Below are positions 2,691-56,500 of a stretch of DNA of 64,000 nucleotides, piece by piece. Positions within the stretch are counted from its first letter, which is position 1, and every line of letters begins with the position of its first letter. The notes under the pieces were generated by a model that made no database searches, was not told where the DNA came from, and worked only from the letters and a program-made list of their open reading frames with translations. This stretch comes from Alphaproteobacteria bacterium (GTDB taxonomy: Bacteria > Pseudomonadota > Alphaproteobacteria > SHVV01): NCBI GenBank assembly GCA_965261735.1, contig OZ253470.1, positions 4,448,001 to 4,512,000 on the forward strand, in the 5' to 3' direction. The position numbers and the translations under genes are program-made.

Positions 2691-4084
2691 GGCTGTGTCT
2701 CGAAAGTGGTGGAAATTTGAGGATGGCGTAATCTCCGGGTGACAAGACAACCACCCAATCGGCGGCTAGCACCGCCAAGGAGATCACGCCATGAAGAACA
2801 CTACCGAGACTTCCGCGCTTTCGCTACTGGCCAATGACGCCGGCTATGATCCGCTCGAGGACCGGCTGCGGGAGAACATCAGATCCACGATCGAGGCCGT
2901 TTTTGAGGAGGAACTTGCGCAGTTTCTCGGGCGCTGCCGATACGGTCGAGAGGACGCGCTTCGGCAAGGGTATCGGAACGGGCACCGGGAGCGGCAACTG
3001 ACGGGGACATTCGGGACCGAGAGGGTGAGCGTGCCGCGTGCGCGGATCGTTGAGGAAGACGGTCGGGCGTCGGAATGGCGTTCGCGGGCGCTGCCGCGCT
3101 ACCAGCGGCTGACCAGAAAGGCCGAGGCGCTGATCGCTTCGGTGTATCTGTCCGGAACCAACACGCGGCGGGTGAAACGCGCGCTGTTCGGGCTCTTCCG
3201 GGGTGCTGTGAGCAAGGACGTTGTGAGCCGGGCGTGGCGCAAGGTGAAGGTCGATTGGGACGCCTGGTGCAGCCGTGGCCTCGCGGATGAGGATATCGTT
3301 CGGCTGATCCTTGACGGCACTGTGATCAAGACCCGACTGGACCGCAAGGCCACCAACATCTCGGTTCTCGCGGCTATAGGGGTGCGCCGGGATGGCCAGA
3401 AGGTCTTGCTTTCGATCGGGAATATGGGCGGAGAAAGCCAGGCGGCGTGGCGCCAGTTCCTCGACGACCTTGATGCGCGTGGACTGAAACGGCCCGGGTT
3501 TGTCATCGTCGATGGCGCGCCGGGACTGGAGGCGGCTCTGTCGGCGCTTTGGGGCGATGACCTTCCCGTTCAACGCTGCACCGTGCACAAGCACCGCAAC
3601 CTTCTGGGTCATGCTCCCAAACACATGCATGACGAGCTGAGCGAAGATTACCGCGATATGATCTATGCCGACACTGCCTCCGAGGTGGAAACCCGCCGCA
3701 AGGCGTTTGTCCGCAAGTGGCGGCTGAAATGCAGGGCCGTCGCGGACAGCCTCGCAGAAGCGGGCGACAAGCTCTTTACCTTCACGCGCCTGTCCAAGAG
3801 CCAATGGAAATCAGCCCGAACGACCAACGCCATTGAGCGTCTCAACGAGGAGTTCAAGCGCCGGATCAAAACACAGACCGTGCTGCCGTGTCCCGAAACA
3901 GTGCCGATGCTCCTCTGGGCACTCCTCGCTTCCGGCCAAATCCAGATGCGCAAAGTCGATGGATGGGAAACCCTCGATCAGCTAATCGCCGACGAAACCC
4001 TTGACCGCGCAGCCTGACCGCCGCAAAACTCAACCCGCTCGGAGAGGCGCCAAAACCAATTTCCACCACTTTCGAGACACAACC
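2691..4084 (+). mobile_element. Complete IS256-family element
   Basis: Terminal inverted repeats GG(C/T)TGTGTCTCGAAAGTGGTGGAAATT; 8-bp target duplication CGAAAGAC at 2683-2690 and 4085-4092. Confidence 0.95.
2791..4017 (+). CDS. IS256 (Mutator-type) transposase
   Basis: GYRNGHRER, LILDG, VIVDGAPGL, QRCTVHK, TTNAIERLNEE; RBS AGGAG upstream. Confidence 0.95.
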   Translation: MKNTTETSALSLLANDAGYDPLEDRLRENIRSTIEAVFEEELAQFLGRCRYGREDALRQGYRNGHRERQLTGTFGTERVSVPRARIVEEDGRASEWRSRALPRYQRLTRKAEALIASVYLSGTNTRRVKRALFGLFRGAVSKDVVSRAWRKVKVDWDAWCSRGLADEDIVRLILDGTVIKTRLDRKATNISVLAAIGVRRDGQKVLLSIGNMGGESQAAWRQFLDDLDARGLKRPGFVIVDGAPGLEAALSALWGDDLPVQRCTVHKHRNLLGHAPKHMHDELSEDYRDMIYADTASEVETRRKAFVRKWRLKCRAVADSLAEAGDKLFTFTRLSKSQWKSARTTNAIERLNEEFKRRIKTQTVLPCPETVPMLLWALLASGQIQMRKVDGWETLDQLIADETLDRAA

Positions 4085-4502: not shown

Positions 4503-4948
4503 TCCGTTGGTCCGTTGTTTGGCGGCGAGATCAAGCGGCGGCGGGTCGACCTGCGCAACTGGTCGAACTGGCGCTGGCATCTTGATGAGGTGTCCGTCCG
4601 CATCAACGGCGAGCCACATTATCTATGGCGCTCGGTTGATCACGAAGGAGAGGTGCTCGAGGTCTTGCCACGAAACGGCGGGATCGCAGGGCTGCGCACA
4701 AGTTCCTGAGGCGCGCCATGAAACGTTATGGCCGGCTACAGTCCATCGTCACGGACAGGCTTCGGTTATATCGGGCGGCGTTGAAGGTGATCGGCAACGA
4801 GGTTTGTCAAGAGACCGGGCGTTGGCTCAACAATCGGGCCGAGAACTCGCACCAGCCGTTCAGACGACGAGAACGCGCAACGGCCAAATTCAGGGACGCA
4901 AAGACCCTGCAGAAATTCATTGCTGTCCATACCTCGATCCACAACCAA
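4503..4948 (+). pseudogene. IS6-family transposase internal fragment (frameshifted)
   Basis: RWHLDEV, LWRSVDHEGEVLE, IVTDRL, NNRAENSHQPFRRRER. Confidence 0.9.
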
Positions 4949-6274
4949 GACCGCCTGACCCGGTCCTTGGCCGACTTCGCACGCATGATCGAGATCTTCG
5001 ATCGCCGCCGGGTCAGCTTCGTCAGCGTCACCCAGGCCTTCAACACCACGACCAGCATGGGCCGCCTGACACTGAACGTGCTCTTGTCCTTCGCCCAGTT
5101 CGAGCGCGAGGTGACGGGCGAGCGCATCCGCGACAAGATCGCGGCCTCCAAGGCCAAGGGCATGTGGATGGGCGGCACTGTGCCGCTTGGCTACGACCCG
5201 CCTGGGGATGGCACGCGCGCCCTGGCGGTCAACCAGGAGGAGGCCGAGATCGTGCGCACCATCTTCCGAGCCTATATCGACCTCGGCTCGGTGCACGCGC
5301 TGCAGCGATGGCTTGAGGACCGGGGCATCCGTTCGAAGCGGCGGGTGACGCGGGCGGGTCGACTATCCGGCGGCCGACCGTTCAGCCGCGGCGCGCTCTT
5401 TCAACTGCTGCGCAACAGAGTCTATCGCGGCCTGATCGTCCACAAGGGGAGGGTGCATCCGGGCCGGCACCAGGCCATCATCGATGCCGATCTCTTCGAG
5501 GCTGTCCAGGCGCGCCTCGATGCGAACACTCGCCGTCGCGCATCGAAGCTGGAGCAGAAGTTGAATGCCCCTCTGGCCGGGCGCCTCTTCGATGCGGATG
5601 GTCGGCCGATGTCGCCGACCTTCTCCCACGGGAGAGGCGGCAAGCTCTATCGCTACTACGTCTCGGCACCGCTTCAGCAAGGTGCAAGGCGCGATCCGTC
5701 CGACACAGCCATCCGGCGTATCTCCGCACCATCGCTCGAAGTCGCCCTCGCGGCTGCGCTGCGTCGCGTGATCCCGGGATGTCCGGTTGATCCCATCACG
5801 CTTGTTGTCCGCGCCGAGCTCCACGATCAGTCGCTGCACTGCTTGCTGCCGATCGACCGGGTCGTCGCGATGCGCGAGCGCCTCGAGCCCCACGAACGGG
5901 TCGAGCCGGATCCAGTGGATGCGCGCCTCGCCAGGCTGCATCTGCCCCTGGTCCGGCGTCGCGGTCAGACCTGGGTTCTTAAGGGCCAAAGTCCGGGACA
6001 CATGCCGGACCCGGTTCTGGTCAGGGCGCTCCGCTCCGCTCACGCCATGCTGCACTATGACGATGACGGGCTGCCGGCACTCACTGCAGTACCCGATACG
6101 CCCCATCGACGCCGGCTCGTCCGCCTGGCCTTTCTGGCGCCAGAGATCCAGCGGGCGATCGTTGAAGGTCGCCAATCCGCAGGCCTGACACTGTCACGGC
6201 TCCTCAAGGGCCCGATGCCGCTCGACTGGTCGCAGCAAGCCGCCCGCTTCCCGTTTGCGGCATCGCCGGAATAG
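4949..6274 (+). pseudogene. Large serine recombinase lacking its catalytic N-terminus, fused in frame to the IS6 fragment (ORF 4718-6274)
   Basis: DRLTRSL..SFVSVTQAFNTTTSMGRLTLNVLLSFAQFEREVTGERIRDK; paralog of 48031-49776. Confidence 0.9.
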
Positions 6275-6464
6275 GGATCGGCACGGGAAAGTTTGTAAGG
6301 CATTGATATTACGGGAGGCTCTCGGTTTATTGGTTGGAAAACCCGCAATATTCTCCCTGTTTTGAGGCCGAAATCGCAAAAATTCCCTGTTTCCGCCAAA
6401 CTCACCCTTGCATCGCGCTCGCGGAGACCGCACACCGCGAAGCCCGGTAATTGCCGGAAATGCT

Positions 6465-6782
6465 CCCGCGTTCAGGAGCTGCGAATTCCGATTGACCGCG
6501 AAACAGGCCCTGTTTTCCGTGGGTTGGCCGCGCCATGCGATGAAGAGACTGCCTCGCCGGGGTGGCTGGCTGTGCAGGCAGTCTCCCGCGAACTCGTCTC
6601 TGAGGCCAATTCCCTGCTTAACAGGGAAAATACAGGGAAATTTTCTCTTTTGCAGGGATTCAGAAGCTTTCCTGTGTTTAAAACATGGCAGAAACGCTAG
6701 TGTTTTCGGTCCAATTCCCTAAACCATGTAACAGGGAATTTATTTGAACGAACAGGGATTTTGTTCGGGAGAACAGGGAATT
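6465..6782. repeat. Recombinase-associated att-like site with phased ACAGGGA repeats (copy 1)
   Basis: 6465-6570 matches 46826-46931; 6567-6640 matches 49892-49964; ACAGGGA at 6621, 6632, 6731, 6752, 6773. Confidence 0.8.
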
Positions 6783-6992
6783 CTACTGGTCCACGGCGGC
6801 AGCCGAAACATGACCGCGCCCGGCGCCGGCGCCGGGTCGATGTGGTTCATGAGTTGGCGGGAGCCTGAGGCCGCTTGGTTGTGGGTCTTGCAGGTCCGAC
6901 CCAGTTAGTCTGATGGTATGGACGCCCCCTACGGCTTCACGATGAGCCATACTGGAGTGTGTTGAACAACCCAGACAGAGGGAGCGTCCACG

Positions 6993-8012
6993 ATGGATAT
7001 TACGACAATTGGGTTTGATCTGGCAAAGACGGTGTTCCAGGTTCACGGTGCTGATGGTGAGGGACGACCGGTACTACGGCGGAAGCTGCGCCGCGGGAAG
7101 GTGCTGGCGTTCTTCGCCGGATTGCCATCCTGTCTTGTCGGTATGGAAGCCTGTGCCTCTGCGCACTATTGGGCTCGGGAACTGCAAGCACACGGGCACA
7201 AAGTTCAGCTGATTCCGCCTCAATACGTTCGTCCCTTCGTCAAAACGAATAAGAACGACGCAGCGGATGCGGAAGCGATCTGTGAGGCAGTGACGCGTCC
7301 GACGATGCGCTTTGCACCGGCGAAAAGCGCCGAGCAGCAGTCGGTTCTGATGCTGCACCGGGCCCGAGAGCTGTTGGTCCGTCAACGCACGATGGTGATC
7401 AATGCGCTGCGCGGCCACTGTGCGGAGTTCGGACTGATCGTCGCTCAGGGGGCGTCGAAGGTGGAGGAACTGGTTGCCATTATCGAAGATCCCGGCGATG
7501 TGCGACTGCCGCCTCTGGCACGCGAGGCGCTTGGCTCTCTGGTTGAGCAGCTCCGCTCTGCTCAGGCCCGGATCAAGCAGCTGGAAGTGACGCTTTTGGC
7601 ATGGCACCGCTCCAACGAGGCGAACCGCCGTCTTGCGACGATCCCCGGCGTCGGTGTCATCACCGCGACGGCGCTGGTCGCGACGATCGGAGATGGCGCG
7701 CAGTTTCGCTCGGGCCGGCAGCTCTCGGCCTGGCTCGGTCTCGTGCCCCGACAACACTCGAGTGGCGGCAAGGACAGGCTGGGGCGGATCTCGAAGCGCG
7801 GGGATGGCTATATCAGGCGCTTGCTCGTGCATGGTGCGCGAAGCGTGCTGCGCTGGCGCCGCGCCAAGCCGGGCACGGGGCCTGGCTGGACCGACCGGCT
7901 CCTGGCGCGGCGGCCGACAAACGTCGTGCTGGTCGCCATGGCCAATAAGACAGCCCGCGTCGCCTGGGCACTGCTCAGATACGAGCGTATCTACCGACCG
8001 ACGCCCGCCTGA
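6993..8012 (+). CDS. IS110-family DEDD recombinase/transposase
   Basis: IGFDLAK, GMEAC, KNDAADA, WLGLVPRQHSSGGK. Confidence 0.95.
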   Translation: MDITTIGFDLAKTVFQVHGADGEGRPVLRRKLRRGKVLAFFAGLPSCLVGMEACASAHYWARELQAHGHKVQLIPPQYVRPFVKTNKNDAADAEAICEAVTRPTMRFAPAKSAEQQSVLMLHRARELLVRQRTMVINALRGHCAEFGLIVAQGASKVEELVAIIEDPGDVRLPPLAREALGSLVEQLRSAQARIKQLEVTLLAWHRSNEANRRLATIPGVGVITATALVATIGDGAQFRSGRQLSAWLGLVPRQHSSGGKDRLGRISKRGDGYIRRLLVHGARSVLRWRRAKPGTGPGWTDRLLARRPTNVVLVAMANKTARVAWALLRYERIYRPTPA

Positions 8013-46824: not shown

Positions 46825-46927
46825 TCCCGCGTTCGGGAGCTCCGGATTGAGATTGACCGCGAAACAGGCCCTGTTTTCCGTGGCTTGGCCGCGCCATGCG
46901 ATGAAGAGACAGCTGCGCCGGGGTGGC

Positions 46928-46952
46928 TGGCGGAGTGGATGGGATTCGAACC
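46928..46952 (-). other. tRNA 3'-end-like sequence GGTTCGAATCCCATCCACTCCGCCA (att-like; not an intact tRNA)
   Basis: T-arm plus acceptor strand ending GCCA; no 5' half seen. Confidence 0.7.
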
Positions 46953-47198
46953 AACGCTATGCTTTGCGTACCGCCTTGTTTTTTCGGAGTGTTTTCAGCA
47001 CTTTAGGCTCTGAGAAATCCGCGCCAAACGAGCTCTTTGTACTGGATTTCTGCGCGCAAGGAAGCGGTACTGTCGTCAGGTCGAGGAACGGGACAGGCCC
47101 CGCTCTCCACCCGCCCGGACCGGGGTTCATAATCCCTACCGGGCTTGGGGTGGTGGGAGGCCGCGCAAGGGGCGCGGCCGGAGACGGAGGACCGCCCT

Positions 47199-47495
47199 AT
47201 GACCAAACGAACCCCGAACAAAACGCGCCCGCGCACCCGTGCGGAGAAGAAGAGCGCCGCGACGAGCGCTCAGGAATCGGATGCGGCCAGACGCCCCAGC
47301 GGCAAGCTCGGCCTGATCGTGGACCGGCTCGAACGAACGGCCGGAGCGACGATCGACGAACTTGTCGATGCGACGGGCTGGCAGAAACATTCGGTCCACG
47401 GCGCTCTGAGCCGGCTCAGGTCAGCGGGCTTCGCCATTCGTCTGGAATTGACGGTGGGACGGAAGGCCTATCGGCTCGCACCGGCCGAGGCGTAA
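47199..47495 (+). CDS. DUF3489-family small (HTH-like) protein
   Basis: GATIDELVDATGWQKHSVHGALS..YRL; RBS GGAGG. Confidence 0.85.
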   Translation: MTKRTPNKTRPRTRAEKKSAATSAQESDAARRPSGKLGLIVDRLERTAGATIDELVDATGWQKHSVHGALSRLRSAGFAIRLELTVGRKAYRLAPAEA

Positions 47496-47498
47496 GCC

Positions 47499-48038
47499 AT
47501 GTCAGTTACGGAAATCCACACTATAGAAAGCCCGACGCGCGTAGACGGCGCGCCAGGTGACGCGGGCTGCGAAGACGCAGTGGCTGCCAAGCTTCGGGCT
47601 CTCGAGGGTATGACCTACGACGGATTGCGCGTCGAATGGCGGCGGCTTTACCGCGCCCAACCGCCGAAGCGGGTGGCGCGCGGTCTGCTCGTGCTTGGTG
47701 TCGCCTGGAAGATTCAGGAGCAGGCCTATGGCGGCCTTGGCGCAGCCACCAAGCGGCGCCTCGCCGATCTGGCGAAGACCATGGAACAGGACGGCGACCT
47801 CGCCCGGAGTCGTGTTGCGCGGCTGAAACCCGGGGCGAGGCTGGTGCGTGAATGGCGCGGCCAAACCCACACGGTGATCGTTCTCGAAGACGGGTTCGAA
47901 TGGCAGGGCAAACGATGGCGATCGCTGTCGGTGATCGCCCGCGAGATCACCGACGCTCACTGGTCCGGCCCGCGCTTTTTTGGTCTGAACGGGAAAGCGG
48001 AGGCAGGCGTCGCGATCGGGGAGGCGGGCGATGGGTAA
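47499..48038 (+). CDS. DUF2924-family protein
   Basis: AWKIQEQAYGGL, LKPGARLVREWRG..H.V, SLSVIAREIT..HWSGPRFFGL. Confidence 0.9.
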   Translation: MSVTEIHTIESPTRVDGAPGDAGCEDAVAAKLRALEGMTYDGLRVEWRRLYRAQPPKRVARGLLVLGVAWKIQEQAYGGLGAATKRRLADLAKTMEQDGDLARSRVARLKPGARLVREWRGQTHTVIVLEDGFEWQGKRWRSLSVIAREITDAHWSGPRFFGLNGKAEAGVAIGEAGDG

Positions 48039-49776
48039 ATCCACGACTCGCAAGGGGACGAACGGCAAGGCATTAATCCGCTGCGCCATCTACACTCGGA
48101 AATCATCGGAGGACGGCCTCGAGCAGGACTTCAACTCGCTCGATGCCCAGCGGGAATCCTGCGAAGCCTTTATCCTCAGTCAGAAGCACGAGGGCTGGAC
48201 CGCGCTGCCCGAGATGTACGATGACGGCGGCCTCTCCGGCGGCACCCTTGAGAGACCCGCCCTGAAACGGATTCTTGCGGATATCGAGGCCCACCGGATC
48301 GACACTGTGGTCGTCTACAAGGTGGATCGACTGACACGCTCGCTCGGTGACTTCGCCAAGATCGTGGAAATCTTCGACAAGCGGAACGTGTCCTTCGTCT
48401 CGGTGACCCAGCAGTTTAACACCACGACATCGATGGGGAGGTTGACCCTCAACATGCTGCTCTCCTTCGCCCAGTTCGAGCGCGAGGTCACCGGCGAACG
48501 CATCCGCGACAAGATCGCGGCTTCGAAGAAGAAGGGCATGTGGATGGGCGGCAACGTGTCCCTCGGCTATGTGGTGAAGGACCGGAAACTTCTGATCGAC
48601 GAGGCGGAGGCCAAGACGGTCCGACATATCTACCGGCGATACGCCACGCTCGGCTCGGTCTGGACCCTCAAGGAGGAGCTTGACCGCGATGGCGTGGTCA
48701 GCAAAGTGCGGGTCGACAGGTGCGGGCGTGCGACCGGCGGAAACCCGCTTGCCCGTGGTGCGCTCTATACGATGCTGCAGAACCGCATCTACCGTGGCCG
48801 GATCGTCCACAAGGACAAGCACTATCCGGGCGAGCATGAGGCGATCGTCGACGAGGCGCTCTGGGACGAGGTGCAGCGGCAACTGGCGGCCAACCAAATC
48901 GACCGCGCGACCGGCACTCATGCCGCGGAGCCGAGCCTTCTAGCGGGGTTGATTTACGACGACAGCGGCCAGCGCATGACGCCGAGCCACGCCAACAAGA
49001 AGGGGACGCGCTACCGCTATTACGTGTCGCAAGCCCTGGTCAGCGAAATCCGGCGTTCCGCGCCGAGAGCTCGACGGGTCCCGGCAAGTGATGTCGAGCG
49101 GTTGGGACAAGAACGGCTTACGGTCTTCTTAAAAAGCCAGGGTGAAATCTTCGACGCTGTCGAACCGCTTTTTGATGATGTGAACAGAAGGCAGGAGGTT
49201 GTCGACCTGGCCGCGGACCTTGCCGCCCGCTGGCCGGACCTGGAGCCGGCGACGAAACGCCAGATATTCGAACGTCTCGTCAGTCGGATCAACCTTACGC
49301 AGGAAACACTTGAAATCCGGATTGCACCGAGCCGGTTGCTGGAGATTCTTTGGGAAGAGGACAACCCAAAAACCTTCGAGCCAGCTTTGTGGGACAACGA
49401 GCTGACCGTAACCTTCACGGTTCCGGCGCATCTTAAGCGCGCCGGAATGGAGACCAGACTTCTGATCGAAGGCGCGGACGGCAGCGCACGAAAATCCCCG
49501 GATCGCAGTCTGCTCAGACTTTTGAGCCAGGCGCAGCGCTTCCACGAAATGGTGCTGCACAACCGGGGCAGGACGATGACGGAGCTTGCCATCGAGGCGA
49601 GCGTCGGTGGGTCTTACTTCACCCGGATCCTGCGGCTCAGCTTCCTCGCGCCGGAGGTCGTGAAGACCATCCTCCGGGACCGCCATCCGCTCGAGCTGAC
49701 CGCGAACAAGCTTGCAGGCGACACGCGCCTGCCAATCGCATGGGAAGAACAGCGCGCCCGGTTCGGGATCGCCTGA
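48031..49776 (+). CDS. Large serine recombinase (intact)
   Basis: CAIYTRKSS catalytic motif, SLDAQ, DDGGLSG, RPAL, VDRLTRS, recombinase domain, YRYYVS. Confidence 0.95.
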   Translation: MGKSTTRKGTNGKALIRCAIYTRKSSEDGLEQDFNSLDAQRESCEAFILSQKHEGWTALPEMYDDGGLSGGTLERPALKRILADIEAHRIDTVVVYKVDRLTRSLGDFAKIVEIFDKRNVSFVSVTQQFNTTTSMGRLTLNMLLSFAQFEREVTGERIRDKIAASKKKGMWMGGNVSLGYVVKDRKLLIDEAEAKTVRHIYRRYATLGSVWTLKEELDRDGVVSKVRVDRCGRATGGNPLARGALYTMLQNRIYRGRIVHKDKHYPGEHEAIVDEALWDEVQRQLAANQIDRATGTHAAEPSLLAGLIYDDSGQRMTPSHANKKGTRYRYYVSQALVSEIRRSAPRARRVPASDVERLGQERLTVFLKSQGEIFDAVEPLFDDVNRRQEVVDLAADLAARWPDLEPATKRQIFERLVSRINLTQETLEIRIAPSRLLEILWEEDNPKTFEPALWDNELTVTFTVPAHLKRAGMETRLLIEGADGSARKSPDRSLLRLLSQAQRFHEMVLHNRGRTMTELAIEASVGGSYFTRILRLSFLAPEVVKTILRDRHPLELTANKLAGDTRLPIAWEEQRARFGIA

Positions 49777-49891
49777 GCCAGGGTCTCGGCCACGACGGAA
49801 AGGCGTATCGGGCGCAACCCCCGGAAGTTTCGGGACAAGTTCGAATCCATCCAGCGTCCTGAATAAACATTATATAACAATGACTTAAGTG

Positions 49892-50125
49892 TGGCGGAGG
49901 ACGCAGTCTGCTGCGAACCTGTCTCTGCGCCAATTCCCTGTTAAACAGGGAAAATACAGGGAATTATTGCAGATTCGACCTTAAATCGGCGGGAGTGGGC
50001 CGTCTAAGGCGTTGATATCATAGGGAATCGAGACCCAATTCCCTACGCCACGGAACAGGGAATTATTATTGGCCTAACAGGGAATTTTCCAGGGTGAACA
50101 GGGAAATTCACTCGCCGAACAGGGA
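49892..50125. repeat. Recombinase-associated att-like site with phased ACAGGGA repeats (copy 2)
   Basis: ACAGGGA at 49945, 49956, 50055, 50077, 50098, 50119; inverted AATTCCCT copies at ~49932 and ~50037. Confidence 0.8.
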
Positions 50126-52429: not shown

Positions 52430-52662
52430 GTACGGTGCACGACTTCGACCAGCCCTGGAGGAGAGACACGATCCCCGCCCTCGAAATCGCCGACTGCATC
52501 AACGAAACCCGCCCCTGGTCGGGGAAGCCGGTGCAGCCGAACTCGCTGACCGAGTATAACGGCGAGGTCGTGGGGTTCTGCAATAGCGGGTACCGCGACA
52601 CGTTAGAGACGGGGCTCCGCCACTTCGAGAAGGCGAGGGCGTCTCGAAGGGCTCACGAATGA
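52430..52662 (+). pseudogene. YHS-like C-terminal fragment
   Basis: INET.PWSGKPV...SLTEYNG.VVGFCN.G.RD. Confidence 0.5.
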
Positions 52663-53504
52663 CCTGCCGGTCAGCTGAGCGCGGCACGCGGCGGAGCTCG
52701 TCGCGGATCCTTGCCTTCTCGGTCATGCTCCCCGCCCTCACGTTCGCCGGCTCCGCATCCGCCGAGACCTGGCGCGGCCTCACCGTGACGCCCGAGCACC
52801 GCTGTTCGCCCTACGAGAGGAAGCGGGACTACCCCTATTCGCAGTCGGTGGAGCAGGACATCGTCCGGCAACTCGGGGTGATCTACGGTCCCTACACGGG
52901 GAAGTGCTTCTCCTCCACCACTGAGACCGACATCGAGCACATCGTCGCGACGAGCGAGGCACACGACTCGGGACTCTGCGCCGCGGATCGGGCCACACGA
53001 AAGCAGTTCGCCCAGGACCTTCGCAACCTCACGCTCGCCTCCCCGGAGGTGAACCGCCGGCAGAAGAGCGGCAACGACGCCGGTGAATGGGTCCCGGGCA
53101 GGAACCGGTGCTGGTTCGCCGGAAGGGTGCTCCAGGTGAAGCGCGCCTACGGGCTCACCGTGGATCGGCGAGAGGCCGCGGCGCTCGAACGCATCCTTCA
53201 GGGCTGCGCGAGCACCGCGATGGAGCCCATGGTGTGCCGGGCGGCGCCGACACCGGCAGGAGATACCGGACGGGGCGCTGGTGGGGACGACGTGCTCGCT
53301 CGCTACGACAACAACCGGAACGGCAGGATCACGTGCAAGGAGGCGCGCCGGCACGGGATCGCACCCGTCCACCGGTCGCACCCCGCGTACCGGTACATGC
53401 GCGATGGTGACGGGGACGGGGTCGTATGCGGCAGATCCCTCCTCAACGCGCGTTCGGGGGACTCCCGAACTCGCTGCTATTGGTTGGTTGCAAAAGGTAG
53501 CTAA
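52659..53504 (+). CDS. Secreted HNH (DUF1524-like) nuclease with EF-hand/Excalibur Ca-binding tail
   Basis: Signal peptide; DIEHIVA..EAHDSG, NLTLA...NR.QKS, DNNRNGRITC, DGDGDGVVC. Confidence 0.75.
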   Translation: MTCRSAERGTRRSSSRILAFSVMLPALTFAGSASAETWRGLTVTPEHRCSPYERKRDYPYSQSVEQDIVRQLGVIYGPYTGKCFSSTTETDIEHIVATSEAHDSGLCAADRATRKQFAQDLRNLTLASPEVNRRQKSGNDAGEWVPGRNRCWFAGRVLQVKRAYGLTVDRREAAALERILQGCASTAMEPMVCRAAPTPAGDTGRGAGGDDVLARYDNNRNGRITCKEARRHGIAPVHRSHPAYRYMRDGDGDGVVCGRSLLNARSGDSRTRCYWLVAKGS

Positions 53505-56500
53505 CCGAACAGGCCTACGCCTGATGAATCCCCTCGCGCGCGGGTACCTTAATACGGCCGGATGCGAATTGCCTCGGGAGACACGGATGCGCGCGGATGC
53601 GCGCGTCAAATACTGGAACTGTTGCCCAGGCGCTTACGGCCACCGTCGTTCGAGCGCCGGAACACCGCGCTCGTACGTCGAGGATCAGGCGCGCGGCGAC
53701 CGGTGCTGGCCGTTACGCGAAGATACGTGACGCGAAGGATGCGAAGTGAGGTAATCAACGGGCGAGGTGCCCCTGTTTCGGTTGCGCCGGCGCAGCTCGA
53801 GGGCCTGGGGGCTTGGTACAGGAGAGTCGGGGGTATCCCACATGCAGTTTGTGCGGGGAGGTCCAGATGTTTCCGAGCGCCTGTTGCAGGCGCACGAAGA
53901 AGGCCGTGTCGTCTTCTTCTGTGGCGCTGGAATCTCCTATCCGGCTCGCTTGCCAGGATTTGCCGGGCTGGTGGACGAACTTTATTCCCGCTTGGAGATC
54001 ATCCCGGATCCGGTGCAAGCGGCAGCCATCAAATCCAAGCGTTATGACACGGCCGTGGGTTTGCTGGAGGCGAACTTCGTGGGAGGTCGCCAAGCCGTGC
54101 GCCAGAAGATCGCGGAGATCCTCGATCCGGACATTTCTGCCCCCATTGCGACTGCCACGCACGACGCACTGCTGACTCTGGCGGAATGCCGCGAGCGTCG
54201 CACCCGGCTGATCACGACCAACTTCGACCGGCTATTCGAGCATGTCATCGCGAACGGTCGACCTGCTGCGGAACGATTCGAAGCCCCGTTGCTGCCCGTC
54301 CCAAAGCAACGCTGGGATGGATTGGTGTACCTCCACGGCCTGCTTCCTGAAGACCCCGCCGACAACAACCTGGACAATCTGGTGGTCTCAAGCGGCGATT
54401 TCGGCCTTGCCTACCTCACGGAGCGTTGGGCGGCGCGCTTCGTCAGCGAGCTGCTTCGGAACTTCGTCGTGTGCTTTGTCGGCTATAGTATCGACGACCC
54501 CGTTTTGCGCTACATGATGGATGCCTTGGCGGCGGACCGTCTGCTCGGCGAATGGCCGCCCGAAATGTTTGCGTTCGGGAGCTTTTCCAAGCGCGAGGAG
54601 GAGGCGCGTGCGAACGAATGGCGCGCCAAGAACGTCACGCCCATCCTTTATCGGGAACATCGGCGTCACGCCTACCTGCACAGAACCCTCCGCACCTGGG
54701 CCGACACCTACCGCGATGGTGCACGTGGAAAGGAGCGGATCGTCGTCGAATACGCCATGGCGCGCCCGGACACGGCCACCAGTCAGGATGACTTTGTCAG
54801 CCGCATGTTATGGGCCCTGAGCGATTCAAAGGGCCTTCCCGCTATGCGGTTCGCGGACCTGAATCCGGTGCCTGGCCTCGATTGGCTCGAACCGCTCGGT
54901 GAGGACCGTTTCGGGCACGCCGACCTGGTCCGCTTCGGCGTTCCGCCCAAGGCGAGTGCGGACGAGAAACTCGCGTTCAGCCTGATTCGCAGACCCTCAC
55001 CCTACGACTTGGCTCCGCAGATGGCACTCGCGAATTGGGGTGCGCAGGAGGGCCGCCTTGACAGGGTGATGTGGCAGCTGACTCGCTGGTTGAACCGCCA
55101 TCTTGGCAACCCTGCGCTGCTCCTCTGGCTGGTCAAGCAAGGAGGGAAGCTACACGCAGAATTTGCGGACCGGATAGCCTATCGTTTGGATGAGCTGGCC
55201 CGGCTCGAGGATCGCGAATGCGGCGAGGAATTGGACCGCATCCGCAAGGATTCGCCTGACGCGATCCCAGACAAGCGGATGCGCACGCTTTGGGGCCTTG
55301 TGCTAGCTGATCGAGTGAAGAGGCTCGGACCAGACCTCGATCTTCATCGATGGCGGGGCCGCTTCGAGAGAGACGGCCTGACAACGACCTTGCGGCTGGA
55401 ACTGCGTGACTTGCTCAGCCCGCGCGTGTCATTGCGGGCGCCCTTCCGATGGCCCTTTGACGAGGATGAGGATTACGAAGAACAAGGGCGGATGCGACAG
55501 CTCGTTGACTGGGAGATCATGCTCTCGGCAAGCCACGTGCATGGGGATCTGCGCGAGCTGGCGGGTAACGAGAATTGGGCGACCGCCTTGCCGACGCTGC
55601 TCACTGAGTTCACCAGATTGCTTCAGGATGCGCTGGATCTCATGCACGAGCTTGGCGGGGCGGAGGACAAGAGCGATTTGTCATACGTGAGCCAACCATC
55701 AATCGGTGAGCACGCTCAGAATTCGTCTTTCCGAGATTGGACCGCCTTGATCGAGCTGAACCGTGACGCTTGGAGGGCCGCGGCTGCCGTGTCGCCAGAC
55801 CAGGCGCGACTCGTGGCGGGAGCCTGGTCGCTGCTACCCTACCCTCTGTTCCGCCGACTGGCATTTTTTGCAGCCGCGCAGCTCGACATCGTTCCTCGAA
55901 GTCAGGGACTCGGGTGGCTGCTGGCCGACGACAATTGGTGGCTTTGGTCGGTGGAGACCCAGCGAGAAACCATGCGGCTGCTGGTCGCCCTGGCTCCGGA
56001 ACTCGCTGAAGACGAGCTGGCCACACTCGAGGGTGCGATTCTCGCGGGTCCGCCCGCGACATGTACAGGCCCGATATCGAAGAAGAACGCTGGACGCGGA
56101 TGCAGGAAAGCAGTGTCTGGCTGCGGCTGGCCAAGGTCAGCCGGAGCGGGTCGGAACTGAGTGCCGCCGCCCGGGGCCGGCTGGACGAGATTTCGGCCAA
56201 GTACCCGGATTGGCGGCTGGCTGCGAATGAACGCGACGAGTTTCCGACCTGGACCGGCGACCCGGGAGAGTTGCGCGTTCACGTCGCCTCGCCCCGCGAC
56301 CAAAATGGACTAATCCAATGGCTGCGCGACAATCCCGAGCCGGACGATTGGCGGCCCGACGACTGGCACGAGCGCTGCCGCGACGATTTCGATGAGGCTG
56401 CGTCGGCACTGGCTGCATTGGCAGCGGACGGAACATGGCCGAGCGGTCGGTGGCGCGAAGCACTTCAGCGGTGGTCGGAGGACGAGCTGCGGGAACGCTC

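Follow-up and report, generated by a model that had tools for sequence, protein, structure and literature searches.

Why should a large serine recombinase (LSR) be accompanied by a long, regularly spaced array of short repeats? Phage large serine integrases such as those of Bxb1, phiC31, TP901-1 and A118 use short attP and attB sites, with the integrase gene beside attP, and to our knowledge these sites are described as lacking accessory sites or host factors. Enzymes of this kind are prized for genome engineering, with their short sites, no cofactors thought to be needed and a direction of reaction set by protein-only factors. An array beside an LSR site is unusual because LSRs are thought to need just a short, simple site. 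In the window analysed here, meaning the whole stretch of 64,000 nucleotides, a preliminary description had found ACAGGGA repeats in the same layout at two places, each downstream of a recombinase gene. This raises the question of what structure the repeats belong to and which protein might read them.

The motif array and its conservation

ACAGGGA occurs 15 times in the window, compared with a shuffle mean of 5.6 (sd 2.2, maximum 11; 0 of 100 shuffles reached 15), and clusters at 6621–6779 (copy A) and 49935–50125 (copy B). Thirteen of the 15 copies belong to these two regions. Copy A contributes five on the + strand (6621, 6632, 6731, 6752 and 6773; distal spacing 21/21 bp) and two inverted ones upstream of the array (6354 and 6384, − strand), which are additional to the earlier list. 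Copy B contributes six direct copies (49945, 49956, 50055, 50077, 50098 and 50119, + strand; distal spacing 22/21/21 bp) and one inverted copy (49935, − strand). Positions and spacings as first described proved exact on recount, and alignment of the two copies confirmed their common layout, with motifs and spacing retained and spacers divergent, despite recombinases that are just 41% identical. Across the host genome (5.03 Mb, 65.7% G+C) the heptamer is found at 292 sites on both strands, fewer than the ~614 expected of a random 7-mer, and 45 of the 292 are grouped in eight clusters of identical layout. A BLAST search of the genome added a ninth, degenerate copy of the array.

The features of the two window loci, type B and type A, are as follows.

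47145..47495, + strand: DUF3489 protein, 116 aa, probably winged-helix, first gene of the LSR module (Pfam DUF3489 E 3.5e-12, weak MarR_2 match)
47499..48038, + strand: DUF2924 protein, 179 aa (Pfam DUF2924 E 2e-48); the ORF extends 8 bases into the LSR gene
48031..49776, + strand: type B LSR, 581 aa, intact (Pfam Resolvase + Recombinase)
49777..49891, + strand: type B att site P arm, common to the two tRNA-Ser junction copies up to ...cttaagtg TGGCGGAG, after which they continue into tRNA
49892..49902, + strand: type B crossover region TGGCGGAGGAC, placed by the breakpoints of P-O-P', P-O-B' and flank-O-P' junctions
49903..49927, + strand: 25-bp conserved block GCAGTCTGCTGCGAACCTGTCTCTG, interpreted as the P' half-site of the LSR (its pattern matched exactly at 27 viral and at least 120 metagenome loci)
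49931..49966, + strand: proximal cluster, palindrome AATTCCCTG-N5-CAGGGAA with a direct ACAGGGAA 11 bp beyond (most conserved columns of the 71-arm alignment)
50005..50017, − strand: IHF-consensus-like spacer sequence (TAAGGCGTTGATA on the + strand), read from sequence
50037..50125, + strand: distal cluster, inverted variant AATTCCCTA followed by four direct AACAGGGA at 22, 21 and 21 bp
4718..6274, + strand: truncated type A LSR, N-terminus replaced by an IS6/IS240-type DDE fragment (Pfam; 41% identical to the type B LSR)
6275..6562, + strand: type A P arm, carrying inverted TCCCTGT at 6354 and at 6384
6563..6602, + strand: type A crossover region TGGCTGGCTG, then block GCAGTCTCCCGCGAACTCGTCTCTG (6578–6602), placed by junction comparison with the tRNA-Gln copy
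6606..6779, + strand: type A array, proximal sites at 6621 and 6632, inverted AATTCCCTA at 6713–6721, distal sites at 6731, 6752 and 6773

The statement that both arrays follow recombinases thus holds in full for the intact type B LSR only, the gene upstream of copy A (4718–6274) being a truncated LSR whose N-terminus has been swapped for the DDE fragment. Both window copies are parts of decayed elements.

The block provided an anchor for comparison beyond this genome. Its pattern, GCAGTCNNNNGCGAACNNGYCTCTG, matched at least 120 metagenome stretches and 27 viral contigs, and in the 147 listed block-anchored loci CAGGGA/TCCCTG piled up at +34 (−), +45, +56, +137 (−), +153, +175, +196 and +217, with nothing comparable upstream. 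We analysed 75 arms, made up of 73 loci with enough flank and at least three sites plus the two window copies, of which 71 formed a non-redundant set below 90% identity (median pairwise identity 53%). When these 71 arms were aligned, the motif columns were near-invariant and of high information and the spacers carried almost none. The conserved module measures ~190 bp and comprises a palindrome and one direct site, a ~75-bp spacer, an inverted site and as many as four direct sites spaced two helical turns apart.

Spacing is conserved throughout the module. Intervals within the proximal cluster are 10–11 and 11–12 bp; successive distal direct sites lie 21 bp (n = 84) or 22 bp (n = 40) apart, together 124 of 142 intervals, and in 52 of 58 cases 16 bp separate the inverted site from the first distal direct site. 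Distances from the proximal to the distal cluster fall into three classes (97–99 bp in 47 of 61 arms, 108–110 bp in nine and 84–86 bp in two), which indicates that the spacer changes in length by whole helical turns. The array begins ~6–13 bp past the 25-bp block. Because the distance from block to first site varies (31–38 bp) while the internal spacing is fixed, the array does not appear to be strictly phased to the LSR site. The expectation that motif and spacing would be kept across homologous loci was therefore borne out, in >100 independent loci with divergent spacers, and this pattern of fixed motifs and drifting spacers supports the earlier proposal of protein sites on one helical face, which would form part of the LSR attachment region.

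An IHF-like core (TCAANNNNTTR) is present in 19 of the 71 arms, compared with 1.15 expected by shuffling, and 14 of the 19 lie at +110 to +119. The match to the IHF consensus at 50005..50017 in copy B is on the opposite strand and at another offset than in the related arms, and is a hint only.

The array is not a feature of every family member, as seen in a sister lineage (class II) with the same LSR block and no array, in which 38 of the loci with 260 bp or more of downstream sequence showed no more than one site, and at one locus (L129) where an array-less arm is followed by DUF2924; DUF2924 hence also exists without an array. Repeated A(N)GGA motifs are also known from CsrB/RsmZ-like small RNAs, in which they occupy conserved hairpin loops of a transcribed RNA. 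This reading was rejected, as RNAalifold on the 71 arms recovered no structure beyond the 6-bp palindrome (covariation term −0.04), and scans of the window for Rfam families, as for tRNAs, gave no match.

Comparison confirmed that the AACAGGGAA repeats are real and conserved, and as putative protein sites they stand beside the LSR crossover site of elements that insert at tRNA genes, as the following junctions suggest.

The array within the attachment site

The genomic clusters are each tied to a DUF3489-DUF2924-LSR module, with an LSR of type A or type B. Two further genomic copies of the type B LSR, 98–99% identical, abut tRNA-Ser genes. At three genomic LSR copies in all, the P arm runs into a tRNA sequence in reverse complement, that of tRNA-Ser(cga), tRNA-Ser(gct) or tRNA-Gln(ctg), the junction falling after ...TGGCGGAG (type B) or ...TGGCTGG (type A). 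At the six others, both window copies included, the P arm continues into the 25-bp block and array, and at the array at genome 459 kb the DNA to the left of TGGCGG is unrelated. These comparisons put the crossover in TGGCGG(A/T)GG for type B and in TGGCTGG for type A. Since the junctions with tRNA, with block and array, and with new DNA all break at TGGCGG, strand exchange is placed there, with the tRNA as the B' arm and the block plus array as the P' arm. The type B crossover region TGGCGGAGGAC includes the reverse complement of the tRNA-Ser 3' end, covering CCA, discriminator and the first part of the acceptor stem.

The same arrangement is seen in other genomes. A tRNA lies on the opposite strand 163–458 bp past the LSR stop in 38 of the 68 related loci with a complete 3' end, the genes beside related LSR loci being for Ser, Gln, Thr, Leu, Ala, Arg, Lys or Met. 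An element in another genome (loci L020/L354) has its attL, with block and sites, and its tRNA-Ser attR on a single contig, separated by 8.9 kb and with TGGCGG common to both. As judged from these junctions, an LSR that targets tRNA 3' ends has the array in the P' arm of its attachment site.

This placement qualifies the description of the array as downstream of the recombinase. The wording fits attP-like or tandem junctions, such as both in the window; in integrated elements the array is at the far attL end, at least 6–9 kb from the LSR. The array stands 3' of each window LSR because both junctions are attP-like (P-O-P'), and these most likely stem from tandem elements, the array being the left end of the next element along. 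Chains of P-O-P'-type junctions occur in the genome at 0.23–0.46 Mb and 4.29–4.50 Mb. It also bears on co-occurrence with the LSR family, which looked poor at first sight, exact ACAGGGA being nearly absent 3' of 79 homologous LSR loci. Integration places the array at the opposite end of the element, beside the block, so its scarcity 3' of the LSR is no evidence against co-occurrence. An LSR upstream of the block was seen at just 11 loci across both scans, metagenome and viral. Separately, a Sphingomonadales genome (G002; loci L353, L357 and L359–L370) holds 14 block copies, most of the printed ones with sites, and a single one of these has an LSR within 1.5 kb, so solo arms can far outnumber nearby recombinase genes.

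Crossover sites of LSRs span ~40–50 bp with an imperfect dyad about a central dinucleotide, and the sites of this family agree with that. A mirror half-site, GGTTCGC-N4-GACT, is present in 47 of the 145 loci tested and is at −29 in 45 of the 47, and both this symmetry, found in a third of related loci, and its position mark the 25-bp block as a probable LSR half-site. The type A and type B sites of the window are without a mirror half-site on the P side. At the mirror-symmetric loci conservation ends at ~−33, and all 40 upstream flanks examined differ and are host-like. These full mirror-symmetric sites with unrelated DNA to the left (47 of 145) are not accounted for by the integration model proposed here; a tRNA was sought upstream of them and found at one of 147 loci, on the other strand. 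As a further observation, the CGAA of the block is 22 nt from the shared TGG in the type A, type B and L354 arms, compared with 19 nt both in the T-loop of the tRNA and in the lineage with mirror symmetry. This difference of 3 bp is reminiscent of the differing motif spacing of attP and attB half-sites in LSR models.

In several respects the site resembles those of Bxb1, phiC31, TP901-1 and A118, with an LSR of Resolvase plus Recombinase architecture, a crossover site of ~50 bp and an integrase gene adjoining attP. It differs from them in the ~190-bp conserved, phased multi-site module that adjoins one half-site in array-bearing (class I) arms, and also in its tRNA 3' end target, its conserved partner DUF2924 and its family-specific LSR C-terminal extension.

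DUF2924 as candidate binder

Two known types of site offer a comparison. In the res sites of Tn3/gamma-delta (sites I–III) and Sin (site I, an Hbsu/IHF bend and site II), accessory sites bind further copies of the recombinase, whereas in lambda attP, where a tyrosine integrase acts together with IHF, Xis and Fis, one domain of Int itself reads the arm-type sites. The present site shares with res a symmetric crossover site, one-sided accessory sites in direct repeat and a possible bend site in the spacer, and differs in serving a large serine recombinase that integrates at tRNA genes. The motif AACAGGGAAtt is also unrelated to the LSR half-site GCAGTC-N4-GCGAACC, so that, unlike in res, a separate DNA-binding module would be needed. 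Like lambda attP, it has repeated sites outside the core whose orientation and phase are defined, may include an IHF site, and could plausibly serve to bring recombinase to a weak core half-site; the recombinase superfamily and chemistry are different, and here a separate protein would dock on the recombinase.

Of 557 candidate stretches encoding an LSR relative, 79 family loci were kept. DUF2924 adjoins the LSR in 72 of the 79, and 48 have a DUF3489-like ORF immediately before DUF2924. DUF3489 was rejected as a universal binder, as it is missing beside DUF2924 in L072, where array sites are present, and in other Acidobacteriota loci. Another locus (L287) keeps the array and is without the ParB/methylase and DUF5681 genes that accompany other arrays. 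Given these absences and the constancy of DUF2924 and the LSR, DUF2924 or the LSR itself is by elimination the constant candidate binder, an elimination that uses one locus per step (L072 and L287), either of which could be defective.

Structural modelling was consistent with a role in DNA binding for DUF2924. An AF2 model built from a 64-sequence alignment reached pLDDT 83.7 (36.9 for the single-sequence model) and is helical in its N-terminal part, with a beta/alpha domain at the C-terminus. This C-terminal domain aligned with the C-terminal domain of CcrM (6pbd_B 266–348; VIA Z 5.6, rmsd 3.9, 69 aligned) and with MPND (7ydt_A; VIA Z 5.6, rmsd 4.1, 69 aligned). Foldseek gave no match for DUF2924 at E ≤0.001, and its probabilities were 0.66 for an MPND-DNA complex (7ydw_B), 0.51 for MPND (7ydt_A) and 0.54 for CcrM (6pbd_A), with E of 0.5 or worse. 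A sequence search of solved structures returned no match for DUF2924 and chance-level matches only for DUF3489. Pfam RAMA was detected below threshold in 23 of the 64 DUF2924 members (best E 1.6e-4). The fold matches are middling (Z below 8), and these moderate but concordant signals suggest that the C-terminal domain is RAMA-like.

A model of the DUF2924-LSR complex scored 0.72 (runs 0.71–0.74), compared with 0.00 for the best of three controls. The score is the model's own confidence; 116 of 157 solved complexes attained this mark, as did 2 of 215 mismatched pairs, counts that are only rough with custom alignments. Runs shared at least 50% of contacts, with a partner pLDDT of at least 66. 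In the predicted interface, LSR residues 490–571 meet DUF2924 residues 29–95, touching LSR residues that neighbour the invariant L539, P541 and W571; the LSR side is the conserved C-terminal extension of the family. The model supports docking of DUF2924 on this extension, and DUF2924 is the most likely candidate for an array-binding accessory subunit.

In the mechanism that we propose, AACAGGGAAtt would be bound by a protein encoded by the element, DUF2924 being the likeliest. Its N-terminal helices would dock on the C-terminal extension specific to this LSR family, leaving the RAMA-like C-terminal domain free for DNA. The bound array could then form a bent or looped scaffold that keeps extra LSR beside the crossover site. 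Such a scaffold could aid the LSR at junctions with an arbitrary host-side half-site, in the way of lambda arm sites, or it could set direction or topology like the accessory sites of res. We put at about even the chance that the array consists of accessory recombination sites bound by DUF2924 and forming the outer part of the P' arm.

A broader claim is tentative and, in our judgement, somewhat doubtful. It holds that this would be the first LSR with arm-type or res-like accessory sites, in which DUF2924, carried on the C-terminal extension, reads seven to eight phased sites beside attP and so provides directional or topological control and the use of tRNA targets with an arbitrary outer half-site, and that the carriers are widespread, undescribed, minimal tRNA-integrating elements with their own terminase. 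If true, an accessory array within the site and a conserved partner of the enzyme would constitute a new control layer for LSRs and a testable route to targets with one weak half-site. The present analysis also offers a first concrete hypothesis for DUF2924, and it sketches a class of small integrative elements, terminase-bearing and so far undescribed, from soil Alphaproteobacteria and Acidobacteriota. Searches of the literature gave no account of this array, of its element family or of what DUF2924, DUF3489 and DUF5681 do.

Carrier elements and other readings of the array

The carriers, found in soil members of both groups, are small, ~6–9 kb where both ends or most genes could be seen, with the gene order array, ParB/methylase, DUF5681, large terminase, DUF3489, DUF2924 and LSR. 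The complete set fits within 6–7 kb in four loci (L263, L275, L317 and L258), and no capsid, tail or replication genes were seen within the 6–9 kb carriers. Small elements with packaging genes suggest a satellite lifestyle. Small phage satellites typically carry a tyrosine integrase and a replication module. Among them are PICI, cf-PICI, PICMI and P4-like elements. A paper on SatelliteFinder (PMC10085698) deals with such satellites. The present carriers resemble satellites as integrative elements with packaging genes and no capsid or tail genes within the 6–9 kb seen. They differ in having an LSR in place of the tyrosine integrase, a combination of DUF5681, large terminase and ParB/methylase fusion, and no recognisable replication module.

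The gene content invites a second reading, in which the array is a pac or cos-type packaging site. DUF5681 (small terminase-like), the large terminase and perhaps the ParB/methylase protein would bind the phased sites and direct the excised element into helper-phage capsids, adjacency to the att site being incidental. A ParB_N/N6_N4-methylase fusion follows 3' of the array in 41 of the 52 loci with at least 1.5 kb downstream, and in 28 of these 41 a T4-type large terminase follows as well. The small elements carry methylase, DUF5681 and large terminase directly after the array, and in most loci the array is upstream of the packaging module. The layout of three sites, a spacer with IHF-like sequence and four to five further sites also recalls the P1 pac site. 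Array-bearing arms moreover pair with DUF5681 and array-less arms with another small-terminase type (PHROG 309); the two classes of arm, however, are two separate clades in the methylase tree, so this match with terminase type provides no independent contrasts.

The position of the array speaks more for the attachment site. It stays with the LSR block where the packaging module is inverted or set apart by LSR genes, adjoining the block beside the methylase in most loci and also beside an inverted terminase (L299, L267, L240 and L154), beside the LSR 3' end (L090 and L072) and beside unrelated cargo (L135, L146 and L159), the last three with no packaging gene within 5 kb. The retention of the array in L287 tells against packaging as well, as does DUF5681 itself, the least conserved protein of the set (32–48% identity to the query) beside a motif that hardly varies. 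The array thus appears to be linked to the att site and not to the neighbouring genes, and we consider a packaging site unlikely.

The preliminary description had also suggested an iteron- or centromere-like site. An iteron-type origin or other maintenance site of the excised circle would suit the spacing; its binder would be an initiator from the helper phage or an unrecognised protein of the element. Direct repeats 21–22 bp apart, as in the array, are typical of iterons, and iteron origins have repeats of ~17–22 bp next to the cognate initiator gene. A scan of viral contigs for the array pattern produced many contigs of 35–50 kb with TCCCTGAAAACAGGGA-type repeats every 22 bp, which have a half-site in common with the array and resemble its proximal palindrome TCCCTG-N5-CAGGGA; those on L260, L261, L266, L270, L277, L282 and others we take to be lambdoid O-type origin iterons. 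The suggestion is weakened by the lack of a recognisable initiator, primase or partition ATPase among the ORFs checked against Pfam and PHROGs in four 6–7 kb elements. The distal sites are single half-sites and not palindromes, and a motif kept across phyla is better explained by an element-encoded binder than by varied helper-phage initiators. We regard an origin or maintenance site as very unlikely.

Least probable of all is an operator field through which a regulator such as the DUF3489 winged-helix protein, with its weak MarR-type match, would control transcription of the adjacent operon. In its favour, the distal sites of L263, L275 and L317 end ~100–300 bp before the first gene of a tight one-strand operon. 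Against it, the array of L090 and L072 faces the LSR 3' end, with no operon start nearby, and L072 has sites and lacks DUF3489. A simple operator would also need fewer than the seven to eight sites, spread over 190 bp and subject to indels of whole turns, that make up the array.

Several further observations concern the surroundings of the two window loci. Directly upstream of the type B DUF3489-DUF2924-LSR module, at 46830–46975, a type A P arm is fused to a ~50-nt tRNA 3' fragment (TGGCGGAGTGGATGGGATTCGAACC...), which looks like the attR scar of another element; according to tblastn coordinates, homology among the type B copies appears to begin at this fragment. A few kb past the type B array, at 52659–56160, are genes with GmrSD_C/Excalibur and SIR2_2 domains, possibly defence cargo.

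The type A locus is set among mobile elements. An IS110-family transposase gene (6993–8012; Pfam DEDD_Tnp_IS110 and Transposase_20) starts ~210 bp past the last type A array site, and the sequence of the region 6783–8012 recurs behind the array of at least two more type A copies, at genome 418 kb and 4294 kb, a recurrence that may reflect shared or targeted insertion. A Mutator-family transposase gene is located just upstream of the truncated type A LSR (region 2791–4017), and the window is dense with further insertion sequences (IS1595, IS21, IS3 and DDE_Tnp_1_4). The inverted P-arm sites of type A vary in number among copies. The copy at genome 229 kb, which ends at tRNA-Gln(CTG), has four more of them, 21–22 bp apart, and at genome 4293.4–4293.7 kb (locus L017) the type A P arm holds approximately eight tandem 21-bp units (cccctgttctgcagaaaagaa), an expanded and degenerate version of the inverted sites in the 229 kb copy.
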